NCBI GenBank assembly: GCA_013239625.1
Contig: MU053758.1
Coordinates: 1,674,001-1,738,000, forward strand
DNA: 64,000 nucleotides
Direction of reading: 5' to 3'
Source: Lama guanicoe
Lineage: Eukaryota
The translations under genes were made by a program, and so were the position numbers. The first letter of the stretch is position 1. Each line of letters starts with the position of its first letter. Positions 6,645 to 49,790 of this stretch are shown here, one piece after another. The notes beneath the pieces are model-generated. The model was not told where the DNA came from, ran no database searches, and worked only from the letters and a program-made list of their open reading frames with translations.

Positions 6645-7507
6645 CTGGTCTCCGTGTCCTTGGCTGGCACAGGCGACCCAAACCCAACGAGCGGCCGCTC
6701 TCCAGGCCCGGGGAAGAGCTCGGGAGGCGGGGCCCCGGCCGTCGAGGAGCCCCCTGTGCTGCGGGTCTTGCCTCCGGGGCTCTCGGCGAAGACTGACGAG
6801 GAGCCCGAGTCTTTGCGGAAGGACTGGCGCACCGGCGAGCCGCGACTGGGCGGCCCCGAGTAGGGGCTGTGCGGCGGCGGGGGGCCTCCGGGGGGCGCCG
6901 CCACGTCGGACAGCTTCTGCGGTGACGAGGGCGGCAGGCGGAAGCCGTAGGCGTCGCCGTAGAGCGGGCCGCCGCCCGCCGCCTTGTACAGCGAGTCCTC
7001 CAGGTCGGACTGCAGCGCGGCGGCCGAGTAGGTGCTGAGCGAGCGCACCGAGCCGCGCTTGTACAGGCCGCCCGCGCCGGGATAGGCGAACGGGTCGCCA
7101 GCGGCCGCGGCCAGGCTCAGGCGGCCTTCGTGGAGCAGCCCGTAGGGGTCGGCGTAAAGGCCCTCGCCCTTCACCAGCACCATGCCGCCCGCTTTGCCCG
7201 CCAGGTCCTCATCCGGCTTCACGTCGCGCCGCTCCAGGATGGCGCTGGGGCTCGGGCTGACGCCCGGGGCGGCGGGGGCACCTCCCAGCCGCTCCGCCGC
7301 GTGGTGCACCGGGCTGCCGGCGTAGGAGGGCGGGCGCCCCGCGGCGTAAGAGAGGCGCGAGCGCGAAGGCGAGCCCGACGGCAGCCCTGACGGCAGCCCG
7401 GACGGTAACCCTGGCGGCGGCGAACCGGACGCCAGGTGCGGCGCCGGTGACAGGTTGTTGAGGCGCCGCGTGGGCGATGACTCCCGCGACGCATACACCA
7501 TCTCTCT
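6645..7507 (-). CDS. SRCIN1: SRCIN1 large proline/serine-rich exon (REMVYASRESSP...AKDTETR)
   Basis: ctgcacag|AGA GAG ATG ... ACC AG|gtgagg; 863 nt; corresponds to ORF 6641..7501; contains EGLYA; CpG-rich. Confidence 0.97.
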
Positions 7508-9353: not shown

Positions 9354-9549
9354 CTGGCGAGCGCAGCTTGGTCTGGCTGGCTGAGCGGGAGAGGGGCAGG
9401 CTCTGTCGGAAGCGGTTCATCCTACTGAAGCCCAGGGGCAGCTCTGCCTCCGACATGGTCTCCAGTGACTCAGCAGAGGCGTAGGACAGCTTAGCTGCCT
9501 GGTCTGCCAGTCCAGGCTGGGCTCCCTGAGTGTGGCGCGAGCTGCGGGT
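9354..9549 (-). CDS. SRCIN1: SRCIN1 exon (TRSSRHTQG...QTKLRSP)
   Basis: cccctgcag|ACC ... CCA G|gtacta; 196 nt; phase 0 to 1. Confidence 0.96.
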
Positions 9550-13068: not shown

Positions 13069-13092
13069 CTTGAAACTCCAGTAGTTTGGCTG
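13069..13092 (-). CDS. SRCIN1: SRCIN1 microexon (Q)PNYWSFK, 21 or 24 nt via a tandem CAGCAG acceptor
   Basis: ttattttcatcag|CAG|CCA AAC TAC TGG AGT TTC AAG|gtcagt; phase 0/0; absent from the ORF track. Confidence 0.92.
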
Positions 13093-13760: not shown

Positions 13761-16700
13761 GAGGGCTGATGGGGCAGGGAGTGGAAGAAGGAGGCTGGGG
13801 GTAAAGGCCAGGGCAAGGAGGCCTGTATAACATGATGGCCTTGGATTACAGGGAAAAGTGGACGATGCCAATTACCCCACAGCACCAGGCAATGGATGGG
13901 GAGCCGTGGCCATCAAGGCAGCGTGGCAGTGTCCTGTGGCAGGACAGATGAGTGAGGAGGGCTCCCTGCTCCCCTAGAATGAGGGGCCTCAGGTTCTCCC
14001 TCACTCACAATGACCTAGGGTCACCCTGACTTCCCTAGAGACCAGAAGGCCCCTCCAGATGGCTTAGGACAAGGGAGGAGTGGCCTGGAGGCCGAGTTGG
14101 TTCTTGGCAAAGCTGAGGGCACCCTGCTGACCGGTGCCAGCCTCAGCAGGAAAACAGAGGCAGCAGATGGCCTGGCCCTGGGGTGCCTGGCACCAGCGGA
14201 CAAGATTCCCTAGGCTTCAGAGCCACTGGCAGAGGGGCACTGCGGGTCCCTGATGGGGGGAGGACACCATGGCAGGATGTCCTGAGCCACCTGAATACTT
14301 TCATGAATGGCAGGAAGGAGCTGGGGAGGGGTACTGTTGAGGTGGAGGCTTCAGATCTCTAGGGTGGAAGGGATGCCAAGCTGGGGCTGGGATGAAGAGG
14401 TTTACTCTCCAGGACAGTCCCATTTGGGCCACAGTCCCCACCTCTCCCCCCAGCAGGGCTCCAAGAGATGCAAAATAATAGTCACATGCCAGGCAGAGGA
14501 AGGGGACAGCAAAGTCTGTGCCCTAACCAGTGCCTGGAACAATCTGTGGATACATGCCACCTCCATGGGTGCCAGGGGACAACCACAGGTGCTGAGGGGA
14601 GGGGAGGGGCTGGAGTAACAGGCTCTAGTCACAGCTGCCTGTGGCCTTGGCAAGGGGAGGGGTAGCCGGGGGAGTGGACACATGGAGGTGGAGGGGGGCA
14701 TGGCAGACCCAGGCAGAGGGCATGGGAAGGTTTATGATGAGAGTCATGTCTGCAGCCCCGGCGGCGATGGACAGCTCTGCAGAGAAGGCGGCCATCCCTC
14801 ACCTATCACCACCATCACACCGTGTACGCACAGGCCACCCAGAATGGCCTGCAACACCAGGCCCCACACAGCGCTGCGTGCAGACTCGCAGGCAGTGTCC
14901 GATAAGGACATCGCTACACACACACCCAGAGCAACAAAGACAAACCTACAGAAGGACACACGCCCCCGGAGAAAAGCCCTCCACGGTTATAAACAACCCC
15001 AGAAACAAACAGAAACTCAGAGACAGAGATACTCATATGAGGATCACCCCCACTCATATAAAACATGCACCCCCCCCACAGGACACTGACTTGCTCACAC
15101 ACACTCCCACAAGCACCACTCCAGTCAGAATCACGGAGGTGCTGGCACCGTTCACACACCCCTAGCCCCTACGAATCACAGAAACACACAGAGACATGGA
15201 TTCCCATTCACACATATGTACACACACACACAAACCCAGCTACAGAAACACAAAAGCAAAACACTCACTGTACGTACACATACAAAGAGAAAGTCTCATC
15301 CCGCCACCCCCCAGCTAGCCAGGTCATGGTGCCTCTGGCCACCTTAGCCACTGTGCGATGTCCATGATGTCCCAGGTATCAGGTGTCAGGTAGGTCAACT
15401 TCTGATTCAAAAGAAGCAGAGATCTTCCCCACCCCAGCCCCCAGAAGTCAACACTTGAGACTCAGTACGTAAAGATGGCTGAGGCCCACTTCATATCTCT
15501 GGAAGGGAGACAGGGATGGGGCCTGGCTACAGCCACACTAGCTATGCCCTCAACATGGGCCTGCCTCACACTCTAAGACTGGGCACATCCACAGGGCAGT
15601 CAGACCTGGAAAGGAAGGATCACTCACTGGGGCCCGGGGAGAGGACTGGGTGACATCATTGCCACGGGACAGGCCAGCAAAGCCCCACTAGAAGGTAAAG
15701 ATGGAAGAGTTGCTGTCTTTGTGCTTGGCGAACTGAGAGCGCGGCTGAGATCAGAGTCCTAGGACTTTGGGTTCTGGCCTGGAAAGCACGCTGAGTGAAC
15801 CCCACCCCTACGTCACCTCTGGAAAGTGAGAGGGATGATCCTCTCTCCTGTTGGCCCCACCAGGAGTGAGACAGAGTCTCCCGGCAACTCAGTGTCCTTG
15901 GAGGAGAGAAACCATTATGGGAAGAGGTCCTCAGGGATGCCGTCCATCCTCTGTCTCTGCCTCTTTCCAGGGTGTTAAGCCCGTGGGACAGCCTTGGGTG
16001 ACTGAGAGCAGAGGGCTCTGCCTGTTTGCTAAAGAAGGGCTCTCCTCTTCCAGCCTCCAGCGCCCTTTACTCCTCACCCTGTTCCTGGTTGTCTGGTCCT
16101 CCTGCCCTGCCCTACACTGTGGCTGGTATATAGTAGGCTTTCAACAAATATTTGATCATGAATGAATGCCAGGAGAACAGGACAGGCCACTGGCAGAGGG
16201 GGATAGTTCTGAAATGCTTGTCTGGCAACTCTCTGTCTCCTGGCACCCAGAACTGCTCAGCCTTCTAGGTCTTTTCTCTTGGAATTCCCCAGTACCAGAG
16301 AACCCCTGGAAGGAGGACAGAGGGCAGGAAGGGTCCAAGAGAGGTCTGGCTCCCCAGCCCAAGCAAAAACCTCTAGTAACTAGGGTGAAGCTGTCTCCAC
16401 TGAGAGACAGGCTGGGGTAGGGGGCAGTGAGAGGGTGAAAGCAAGAAAGGGTTGAGTAGGAGAACCCCTGCCAGGGTAATCACTTGCAGAGAAGAATCTT
16501 ACAGCAACTGGGGCAATGAGAGGTGTTCTAAGAGGATAAGATGGAAACCAGCCATCTACTCCGCAGGGACAAGGCTTTCAGAAATATGCAAAGAGGAGCT
16601 TCTTGGAGACCCAGGGCCAAGGGTCATCAAGCTGCCTGGTGAGTAGAGGAAACAGCTTCTTCCTTCTGGGGGATAAGGAGTTAACTCCCTCCCTTCTCCA

Positions 16701-16890
16701 CCCTAAGCACCCTGTTGGGGTGGGGGTGTCCTTCCCTCGGCCAGCAGCTGGCCCTTTCTCCTGCCCTGGGAGGGGTGGGGCCGTGTCCCTCGGGAGCCCT
16801 AGAGCAGCCAGCTGAGGTCTCTCCCCTGTCCTGGGCAGACGTGCCCTGTAGGCTAGGTGAGTGCGTGACCCCTCCCTGACCTCGAGCCCC

Positions 16891-16911
16891 GACGACGACG
16901 ACGACGACGAC
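16891..16911. repeat. (GAC)7 trinucleotide repeat
   Basis: gacgacgacgacgacgacgac at the edge of the CpG island. Confidence 0.9.
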
Positions 16912-17621
16912 GCATCCTCTCGAGAGGGAGGACAACCTATAGGTCGCATCCCCGCTCTTTAGTCCCCTAGCTCCGCGTGCCCCAGCTCACACACCCACCT
17001 CTCAACTCCTGTGAACATGCGTCCACATAAACACTCGCCCCACACCCCCCGCCAAGGCTGGGGCTCCTCAACCCCCCCCCCCAGGACGCCGGTCTCCCAC
17101 CTCGACGCACGTGCACGACCACCCCCTCCCCTGGCGTGCCCATCCACACGGTCACCGAGCCCTTCCCGATGCAGAGTGCGTGAGGTGGGGGTGTGTGCTG
17201 CGGGACCTCCGCTAAGCCGGGGGCGAGGGCGCACCCCGGAAAGGTCATGACTTTCCGAGGTTGGGGGAGGGGACGCCAGCCGCATTTTGGGGTGGGGGCG
17301 GGGCTCCTGCGGAAGGCTGCCAACGCGATGGAGGAGGGGAGGGGGCGTTTCTCAGAGATCCGGAACCGCAACGGCCTGCGCGCCCCCCACCCCCGGACCG
17401 CCCCTCCGATCCATGGGACGGGCTCCCCATCTCCGCGCCTCAGCCCCCGCAGAACCCGAGGCTGCAGCCCGCGCCCCCGCGGCCGCTCCCCCTTACCTGC
17501 GGCCACAGGTGTACGCGCCGGGCCCCCAGCCCCAGGTCCCGCGTCGGGTGGCGGAGGGAGGGCGGCCCCCTACACCCACCCACCCGGGCTCTTCCCTCCC
17601 CCGGCCGCCTCCGCAGCCGCC

Positions 17622-17756
17622 GCCGCGGGTGCCCTTTGCTGCAATGCGAGAGCCGCCGCCGCCGCCGCCGAGCCGGCCCGGGCCCCGGAGCCGCGGGTGC
17701 CCTTTGCTGCAATGCGAGAGCCGCCGCCGCCGCCGCCGCGCCGGCCCGGGCCCCGG
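17622..17756. repeat. 68-bp-period tandem duplication (2 copies, near identical)
   Basis: gccgcgggtgccctttgctgcaatgcgagagccgccgcc...gccggcccgggccccgg occurs at 17622 and 17690, with one internal mismatch. Confidence 0.95.
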
Positions 17757-19734
17757 TCGCCCCGGTAACCGCGACTCCACCTGGCGCGGCACGGCGCGCA
17801 GCCGTGCACATCCTCTCTCCGGCCCCCTCCCTGGCGCGGCCCCGCCGGCGCAGCCCCGCCGAGGAACGGCGGAGGCTGGTGGCTGCGTCGCCGCGGTCAC
17901 CCGATACGCCGGCCCGCCACCCGGGACTCGGGTTGCAGCAGGAGGGAGGGAGGTTAGACAGCCTAATGGAAGCGGGGGAGGGGCTGCGGCTTGGAGTCTA
18001 GCCTCTGGTCCCCTCCCAGGATCCTCTTCAGGACCCCTCTCCCAACGGTCTGGCCTAGGGTGTGAGGGGAGGAGAGTGGCCTGCCTCCCTACTCGCCACC
18101 CTCTGAGCTTACAGCCTCTCACCACCAGGGTCTCAGCTGTGCACCATTGCCCTTCTGGCTCTCCTGTGACTCAATTCCCAGCCAAACCTGGGAGACCTAG
18201 AAATTTCCTTGGTGGCCTCTGATCCTGCTCTGCTGTGTGACTCTGACATTTGCTGAACGTCTCTGGTCCTGCACTTTACACAAAGGAGCCTCAGATCCAG
18301 CCATGGGAATGGGAAATGCAATGAGCACTAAGTATAAAGTGAAGACAAGATCATATGCGTAGCCACTTTCCTCTGGACCTATGAAGCCCTGGGGTGAGGG
18401 TCCCTTCAAGCTCTCCCCCTTCCTCCATCAGAGCAGATTTCAGATATGGACAGGCCTGGAATCTCATATCCTGGGACAATGGAGATGACCAAGTCCAGCC
18501 TCACTCCCCTCCATCACCCCAACCCAAGACCCTCCATCTCCTCCACCTGGGGAGCACACCTGTCCTCTGCCTCATCACCATCCCTGTCTCAGCCCCACTT
18601 TGACCTCCACTGCACACCTGGCCACTCAGGACAAGTCCATCCCACTTGCCATGCAGCCTTAGGGCAGACACATCTCTGCTCCCTAAGTTCAGTCAAGACG
18701 GAGCCGAGAGCTGGGGAAAGAAAATGGGCTGGGTGCCCTGTGAGTGATGCCAAGCTTGCCAGTCTGTTACTAGACTTGAGTTACACTCAGCTAAAAGTCC
18801 GTTCTCTGGAGCTTTGTCCTTTCCTAAGCTGTCACATTTTTCTTTCTCCTAATTCTCCTCGAAAAAGTCAAGCTTTGCTGCCCCTCCCCAGGAGGCGTGG
18901 GGTATGAGGGTAAGAGAGGATGGCACCCAGGTGACTCACTGGGTTCTCTGCCTCTGCTCTTCCTCTGCTACCCTCAAGTCATGGTCCCCTCAGAGCTGCC
19001 CCTGGCCTGTTGCAACTCTGACTCCCTGCCCCCTCCTCCCCTCTGGGGCTTCAATGCCTGTTTCCCCCCAGCTTCCCACAGTAATGTCCAGGCCTGAGCT
19101 GGGGGCCCAAGCCCTTAAAATCCTGTCTCAGTGTGTTCCTGTCCATCTGCCCATCAGGGAAACTGAGGCATGATAAGGATTCAGGAAATGGGTTCAGAAC
19201 AAATGGCTAGGTGTCAAGGTCCTCTTCCTTTTGAAACTAAGCCCTGGATACAGCAAGAGGGATGGGAGAGAGCCACCATGAACTTCCTGCTGGGGAGACA
19301 GCGGGGGATGATTGGGTCTGCTCAGAGATGGAGGGTAGGGTGGGGAGAGAGGAATGAGATGACCTGTAGTGGGGCTGTGAATTGGGTACAGGGGACAGAG
19401 ACTCTTGAAAACCAGTGGGGGGAGGAGGGAGGTACTCCTGTTTAAAGGAAAAAACGATCAAAAAAAATTTTTAACCTGACTATTCTCCCTCAAAAAAAAA
19501 AAAATTCCTTCCCCAAAGCCAAATTTTGCCATGAGTTTGGGGAGGTGGTGGTAGGAATTAGACAATCAGGGGGAGAAAACAGGGCATAGGAATCTCCTGA
19601 AAATGGGAGGGGGGTCTTACAGAAGAGAAAGGGATGCAAAATGAAAATCCTGGATATCCCCCCTCCAAAAAAATCCTCCTCAAAGCCCAAGTCGGCTATG
19701 GGTTTGGGGGGTGGGGTGGAGGTGGGTGACTCAC

Positions 19735-22969: not shown

Positions 22970-23271
22970 CTGCTCCCGCATCCTGTCTTGCTGACCTCGC
23001 AGGGCTAGGGCGTGCTGGGGGTACTTGCTCTTCAGATGGTCCATGAAGGCATCGCGCTTGCGATCGGCATCGGCCTTCTGGAGCCCGCTGAGCGCCTCCA
23101 GGCTCTGGGCAGCGATCACCGTGTGCCGCCGCTCCGACGTGTGCACCAGCCCCACGTTGGAGAAGCGCCGGCCCCCGCTGCCCCCGCCGCCCCCGCCCCC
23201 CCGGGTCCGGTACTCCCGCGGGTACTCGGCATCGTCTGCAGACAGCATGGGGGGGCTGCTCCGCTCCGGAT
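22970..23271 (-). CDS. SRCIN1: SRCIN1 exon 2 (DPERSSPPMLSADD...QQDRMREQ)
   Basis: Acceptor ctctcgcag|AT and donor CAG|gtgagt; 302 nt; ends in phase 0. Confidence 0.96.
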
Positions 23272-48999: not shown

Positions 49000-49790
49000 T
49001 CACGAGGCCCTCCCCACCCGCTCTCCAGCCGCGCCAGTGCCTGACCCATTCTCTGGTCCCAACACTCCTCTCGCCCGGGTCTTTCTCCCAAGCCCCGCGC
49101 GCCGCGGTCCCCTGCCCCCCACACACCTGCGTCCCGAGCATCCCTAGCCCAGCCGGCCGCCGCCTCCCCGGCCCGGCCGCCGCCCCCGCCCCCGGCCGAG
49201 GGGAAAACACACAAAGAAAACAGAAATACCTTCCACTTAAGCATGGAGGCACATTAGGGAGGAGAGAGACAGGGACATGCCTTGGGACGGAGCGTTCCCC
49301 ATCGGGCGGGGGCGCGGGGGGCGGGGGCCCCGGGCCGGCCTGCCTGGCTCTCGCCCTCTCGCTGCCTCTCGGGCTCCTCGCTGGGCCCCAGCCCCGGGGC
49401 GCGGTGCCAGGCGGGCGGGCCGGGGGCGCGGGCCCCGCCGGGGTGGACCAGCTGGGAGGGCGCCGGCGGCCGGGCGTGTGGGTACGCGCGCGCGCGGGCG
49501 TGTCACCGAGTGTGCGAGAGCGAGAGTGTGTGTGTGTCTGTGTGTGTGTGCGCGCGCGCGCGCGCGGGCCGGCGCGGGTGTGTCACTGCGGGCGGGCACG
49601 CGCGCGGGGCGGGCACGCGCGTGTGGCCAGAACGCACAAAGGGCCGCTGGGGTGGCGGGGAGCCGGTAGGGGAGCGGGCCGGCGCCTCGCGCCCCCCAGC
49701 TGCATGGCGGGATCTCGCAGAGCGCGGCCGTGCCGGGGGTGCGGGGCTCACTCACGCTCCCCTCCCCGTTGCACCTGCTTCTCCCACCCC
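49000..49790 (-). promoter_or_regulatory. CpG-island promoter and 5'UTR of SRCIN1 exon 1a
   Basis: Very high GC and CpG density, GC boxes, and (CG)n/(TG)n tracts around the first ATG. Confidence 0.85.
49281..49302 (-). CDS. SRCIN1: SRCIN1 first coding exon 1a (MGNAPSQ + G), with a non-canonical GC donor
   Basis: ATG GGG AAC GCT CCG TCC CAA G|gcatgt inside a CpG island. Phase 1 joins AT CCG GAG of exon 2 to give the known MGNAPSQDPERS N-terminus. Confidence 0.88.

Follow-up and report, generated by a model that had tools for sequence, protein, structure and literature searches.

A 68-bp tandem duplication predicted to shift a conserved upstream open reading frame of SRCIN1 into the main frame in one Lama guanicoe assembly

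How should a near-perfect tandem duplication inside an internal exon of SRCIN1 be read: as the source of a new N-terminus for the encoded protein, p140Cap, as a change that leaves the coding sequence untouched, or as an error of the assembly? The reading preferred here for the window (the whole stretch of 64,000 nucleotides that was analysed) is that a real but incidental and unselected duplication of 68 bp shifts an old 57-codon upstream open reading frame (uORF) and puts its ATG in a frame that would continue into the main protein, the exon itself being likely an alternative first exon served by an internal CpG-island promoter. To this reading, taken as a whole, we give a probability of slightly less than one half.

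Judged by its sequence, the gene is the orthologue of SRCIN1, as the initial annotation had it: two human p140Cap peptides quoted in the available part of PMC12510028 agree with the window at 13 of 14 residues (at 6952) and 12 of 14 residues (at 6700), and one exon matches the start of the Pfam family AIP3 (E 4e-05), a single-exon match that lies below the curated cut-off. A protein atlas search with one large exon gave no usable match, and a PDB sequence search with one exon returned weak, unrelated matches only. The intron between SRCIN1 exon 2 (22970–23271, minus strand, phase-0 donor at 22970) and the following microexon contains a CpG island at 16800–17950, or about 16.8–17.95 kb, so that the exon under study does lie inside an internal island as previously annotated. 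Its 5' edge, in the sense of the minus strand, is sharp: near 17950, about 140 nt upstream of the ATG at 17811, the number of CpG dinucleotides per 50 bp passes from 0–2 above that position to 6–11 below it. At the 3' tail of the island lies a short (CGT)n tract of about seven units (16891–16912). A conserved block at 17880–17965 (minus strand), upstream of the ATG, is likely the core promoter or the 5' end of the alternative first exon. Downstream, the microexon (13069–13092, minus strand) is of phase 0 and measures 21 or 24 nt, owing to a tandem NAGNAG acceptor at which the exon starts at 13089 after cagcag or at the alternative position 13092, and which permits the gain or loss of one Gln. 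The next coding exon opens with its first codon at 9547–9549 (minus strand) behind another phase-0 acceptor, and its codon 32 is the first in-frame Met, likely the start for transcripts that carry a single copy of the duplicated unit.

Other candidate starts of the gene lie further upstream. The coding part of the distal first exon (49281–49302, minus strand) has a CpG island of its own; a GC donor, AAG/gcatgt (49281–49275, minus strand), seems to be needed for its phase-1 join to exon 2, and the intron between the two is probably a GC-AG intron. A second alternative first exon (48198–48075, minus strand) contains an ATG of its own and a canonical donor whose phase, 1, is compatible with exon 2; with this exon and the internal one the candidate starts of SRCIN1 number three.

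Inside the island, an ATG on the minus strand (17809–17811, with A at -3 and T at +4) opens 105 stop-free codons (315 nt) that end in WPQ at the splice donor CAG/gtaagg (17491–17499, minus strand), the last exon base being 17497. The donor is in phase 0 relative to this ATG, and the acceptors at 13092, 13089 and 9549 are all phase 0 as well, which places the stop-free frame in frame with the downstream coding sequence; both the 105-codon frame and the matching phases had been claimed before and passed an independent check of frame and coordinates. The heptamer AGGTAAG occurs five times on the whole minus strand and only once in the island, namely at this donor. The predicted 105-residue N-terminus (17497–17811, minus strand) holds 23 Arg, 22 Ala, 15 Gly and 11 Pro residues and carries a net charge of +22; neither this peptide nor a 57-residue orthologous uORF matches any Pfam family. 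Predicted folding of the exon as RNA does not surpass that of shuffled sequences (z +1.1), and Rfam gives no match on 16500–18500. It is nevertheless important to stress that the in-frame state taken alone is weak evidence, with about even odds for any frameshift in the exon: because the DNA is about 80% G+C, two of the three frames of 17497–17950 are without a stop, and of the two possible classes of frameshift one puts the uORF in the main frame.

A CpG island, a donor and the lack of a convincing upstream acceptor are found together here, as expected by sequence of an alternative first exon that starts from an intragenic CpG-island promoter. A cassette exon was considered and rejected, as 18300–17812 contains six AG sites whose pyrimidine content is 60% or more, none of them followed by a frame open to the donor, so that a first exon is favoured. 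Within the same region, a conserved CTAAC and pyrimidine run followed by GAG (17926–17960, minus strand) resembles a weak branch point and acceptor; joined to exon 2 it would meet a stop, and it could at most define a decay-inducing exon.

Within the 105-codon frame lies a tandem duplication with a period of 68 (17622–17689 and 17690–17757), the copies of which are identical at 66 of 68 positions and differ at 17671/17739 and 17689/17757, in keeping with the near-perfect repeat first annotated. No other tandem duplication of period 30–399 and at least 85% identity exists in the whole 64 kb, and this one can therefore not be put down to chance. On the minus strand, the 5' copy (17690–17757) is read as poly-Ala followed by LALQQRAP, and the 3' copy (17622–17689), in the shifted frame, as poly-Arg followed by LSHCSK, so that translation confirms the different reading of the two copies. 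The 5' copy carries a derived base at 17739; orthologues read Ser at the codon concerned, agreeing with the 3' copy. Since 68 leaves a remainder of 2 when divided by three, the duplication amounts to an indel within the uORF that is not a multiple of three, and the TAG at 17570–17572 (minus strand), the ancestral uORF stop, has moved out of frame with the ATG at 17811. The distance from ATG to TAG is 239 nt; subtraction of 68 leaves 171 nt, or 57 codons, and a single-copy exon would therefore stop at the TAG at 17572–17570, exactly as the initial annotation had proposed.

The ancestral state can be read from 40 orthologous gene calls that fall into 15 clusters among the matches listed, one cluster being represented by 15 of its 19 members. 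Since their reading continues past the donor into intron sequence and no gene name is attached to them, these calls were apparently made by machine on genomic contigs, and they are evidence on DNA, not on translation; nucleotide distances were read from motif anchors in their translations, without the underlying DNA. All 39 calls that cover the 68-bp unit have a single copy of it, the 40th ending before the unit, which makes the single-copy state ancestral, as had been assumed. Thirteen of the 15 clusters share both the ATG and the stop, in frame and 153–180 nt (51–60 codons) apart. The open reading frame had been called merely a would-be uORF, an understatement given a start and stop kept so widely; that the ATG at 17811 belongs to a uORF which the duplication shifts into the main frame agrees both with the frame arithmetic and with the orthologues. 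An upstream ATG followed in frame by a stop ahead of the coding sequence makes this, on sequence, an ancestral uORF whose translation is putative. The two divergent orthologues in clusters P0031 and P0041 show frame changes inside it, and with these frames broken the predicted uORF is dispensable in some lineages. Moreover, its changes in length occur in GCG tracts; slippage there proceeds in triplets in any case, and the keeping of the frame is therefore weaker evidence than it appears.

Among the seven clusters with both anchors, the distance from the stop to the donor is 76, 78, 72, 76, 67, 72 and 74 nt (76 in the window), corresponding to phases 1, 0, 0, 1, 1, 0 and 2; all three phases thus occur, and the stretch up to the donor preserves no coding frame. 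For the same reason a conserved coding exon is not supported. Translations compatible with the donor itself are found in all ten clusters that reach it. The 23 codons that follow the ATG are 0.91–0.96 identical to the window in the uORF frame and 0.83–0.96 in the shifted frames, by a coarse test that draws on different species for each frame and on translations only. Upstream of the ATG, in the block at 17880–17965, identity is 0.93–1.0 (26–28 of 28 residues) in 11 of the 14 calls tested; two of the other three end before the block and one has a frameshift inside it. A uORF with a conserved peptide is not supported either, since identity in its frame is not above that of the shifted frames or the upstream flank. 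Identity that is alike in all frames and upstream of the ATG argues for constraint at the level of DNA, not of a peptide, as would be expected for a promoter and 5' UTR, and suggests that the exon is the non-coding first exon of a conserved internal promoter rather than a coding one. The comparison with these unnamed gene calls, from whose translations the predicted conservation of ATG, stop and donor is read, thus upholds the uORF start and stop and speaks against any frame or peptide constraint on the exon. The protein searches that gave the 40 calls returned no camelid-like call, with one copy or two; the 105-residue peptide (P0001) and its read-through form are absent from a collection of 15 billion, and an exact 21-base scan of metagenome contigs gave no match.

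One cluster of orthologues offers a parallel. In P0011 and P0012 (nine contigs) the frame ends at the uORF stop; in P0004 and P0013, two contigs of the same cluster, the same ATG runs in frame to the donor over 243 nt with one copy of the unit. The difference between the two pairs reads as the loss of one base at the stop, and the stop-less form could be an allele or an assembly error. As an observation in its own right, the two pairs may represent a uORF-to-main-frame allele that segregates in another mammal. Because P0004 and P0013 are in frame without a duplication, in-frame fusions arise easily and no special event is needed to explain one.

The duplication is probably real in the animal. 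The window is free of any N, with no gap near the duplication, the flanks of the duplication have exactly the lengths seen in orthologues (171 and 76 nt), and the copies differ at two sites. It is on the whole unlikely, though the most serious of the alternatives, that the duplication is an artefact of assembly or consensus, in which two alleles or overlapping read ends were laid in tandem within an island of 80% G+C, the animal having a single-copy exon with its uORF. What speaks for such an error is that the two-copy sequence is found nowhere else, in none of the 39 covering gene calls, but no near-identical genome is among these calls, and their single copy is therefore uninformative on the source species. 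The one internal difference between the copies would also fit two alleles, and false duplications are described in the available part of PMC8081667 as a common assembly error, with GC-rich regions hard to assemble; the SRCIN1 duplication resembles them in being an almost identical tandem copy, confined to a single assembly and set in regulatory DNA rich in GC. In contrast, the false duplications of that source are as large as haplotype contigs or reads and sit at contig ends, whereas the SRCIN1 duplication measures 68 bp and lies in gap-free sequence, with flanks of exact length. A search of a run index adds that 14 of the 24 rows listed hold 0.83–0.94 of 163 sampled words, under three organism labels, a measure that cannot separate one copy from two: words specific to the two-copy state number 49 of 1552, or about 5 of the 163 sampled (range 1–10), and the best holder fits either state. 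Six RNA rows of the index hold 0.05–0.29 of the sampled words. If the duplication were an artefact, it would still serve as a warning that gene models in this assembly may gain false N-termini in GC-rich islands.

Taking the duplication as real but unselected, we infer the promoter, the splicing, the translation and the very presence of the duplication in the animal, and the following course would result. An internal promoter near 17880–17965 would start a non-coding first exon, spliced to the microexon or to the next exon, and its transcripts would skip exon 2. In other mammals this exon would be a predicted 5' UTR, on which ribosomes would translate a short uORF and stop about 70 nt before the donor; with a single copy, re-initiation or leaky scanning to the first Met two exons downstream would then yield an N-terminally shortened p140Cap. 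With two copies, a ribosome would miss the old TAG and continue via the donor, the microexon and later exons, so that a basic, low-complexity head of 105 residues would replace exons 1–2 and the brake exerted by the uORF would be removed. One may speculate that a head so basic could alter where the protein goes or lower its stability.

Whether the ATG and donor are used at all is a further point on which readings diverge. CpG-island promoters have dispersed transcription starts, and the island, be it an enhancer or a promoter, could give rise to transcripts that begin downstream of 17811 or skip the donor at 17497, leaving a duplication without coding effect. Such an outcome fits the enhancer but not promoter activity of intragenic Srcin1 methylated regions reported in the available part of PMC4869176, which may not be the same region; we hold it to be clearly less probable than an artefact, given a strong donor inside the island, compatible with conservation in all ten clusters that reach it, and a conserved block and island edge that both lie upstream of the ATG. 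At the other extreme, the duplication might be real and common or fixed in the lineage, with an Ala/Arg-rich head that is translated, selected and alters the localisation or dose of p140Cap. An ATG with A at -3, an open frame, a strong phase-matched donor, two differences between the copies that suggest some age and a second lineage (P0004/P0013) with the same kind of fusion would all suit this, but about half of all possible frameshifts in the exon would end in frame, relatives show no frame or peptide constraint, the head contains no domain, and no spliced SRCIN1 isoform bearing it was met, a weak negative based on four matches of 8000 candidates scored and a further seven matches. This selected N-terminus is accordingly placed last, as very improbable. 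Hardly better placed is a broader proposal, that new N-termini have arisen repeatedly from an old uORF at an internal SRCIN1 promoter (through the 68-bp duplication here and a one-base loss elsewhere), giving a translated poly-Ala/poly-Arg isoform of p140Cap that is common or fixed in camelids. Since relatives show no constraint on the frame, a chance change without selection is judged most likely; it is followed in order by an artefact, by an unused ATG or donor and by a selected N-terminus.

If the duplication is real and translated, the locus would offer a clean before-and-after case of a uORF that becomes the N-terminus of a protein, and one in which a translational brake on a short p140Cap isoform is removed. 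Should the recurrent, camelid-wide extension also hold true, a synaptic scaffold that inhibits Src would provide a dated, natural example of a protein terminus that originated in a uORF. Apart from the duplication, the conserved internal first exon and its uORF point to a third SRCIN1 promoter, of which no description was found in the literature searched. That search of the SRCIN1/p140Cap literature, mostly of open-access articles, found no account of the internal first exon, its uORF or the N-terminus; browser annotations and CAGE or uORF tables may already list the exon. An internal SRCIN1 promoter was likewise not located in the available parts of PMC8542790, PMC13128493 and PMC4869176. SRCIN1 figures in the uORF literature through one table entry, in the available part of PMC3575844, and p140Cap is stated to run as a doublet in that of PMC12510028.

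The closest known systems come from the study of 5' UTR variants. The tool UTRannotator (10.1101/2020.06.03.132266), which covers indels of 1–5 bp, names a class of variant uFrameShift, and an upstream start in frame and without a stop is described as giving an N-terminal extension (NTE) in the available part of PMC7617937. The SRCIN1 exon shares with these classes an indel in an existing uORF that is not a multiple of three and bypasses the stop, with a predicted N-terminally elongated protein; by its sequence it is a uFrameShift that leads to a predicted N-terminal extension. Unlike the uFrameShift variants of UTRannotator, it arises by a 68-bp tandem duplication; the exon affected is a presumed alternative first exon, and the change is known from one assembly, not from genotyping. 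Two further cases appear in the available part of PMC7617937: the insertion c.-66_-65insT in the NF2 5' UTR, which creates an out-of-frame overlapping ORF with predicted lower protein output from a uORF for which there is evidence of translation, and frameshifts of the PAX6 uORF, which are named in the title of a reference. Both of these share with the SRCIN1 exon a native uORF that, once frameshifted, misses its stop codon. In contrast to NF2, the SRCIN1 uORF is predicted from sequence, and its shift lands in frame and would extend the protein. What is added to this known background is a conserved internal exon whose old, predicted uORF has, in this one sequence, been moved to the main frame.
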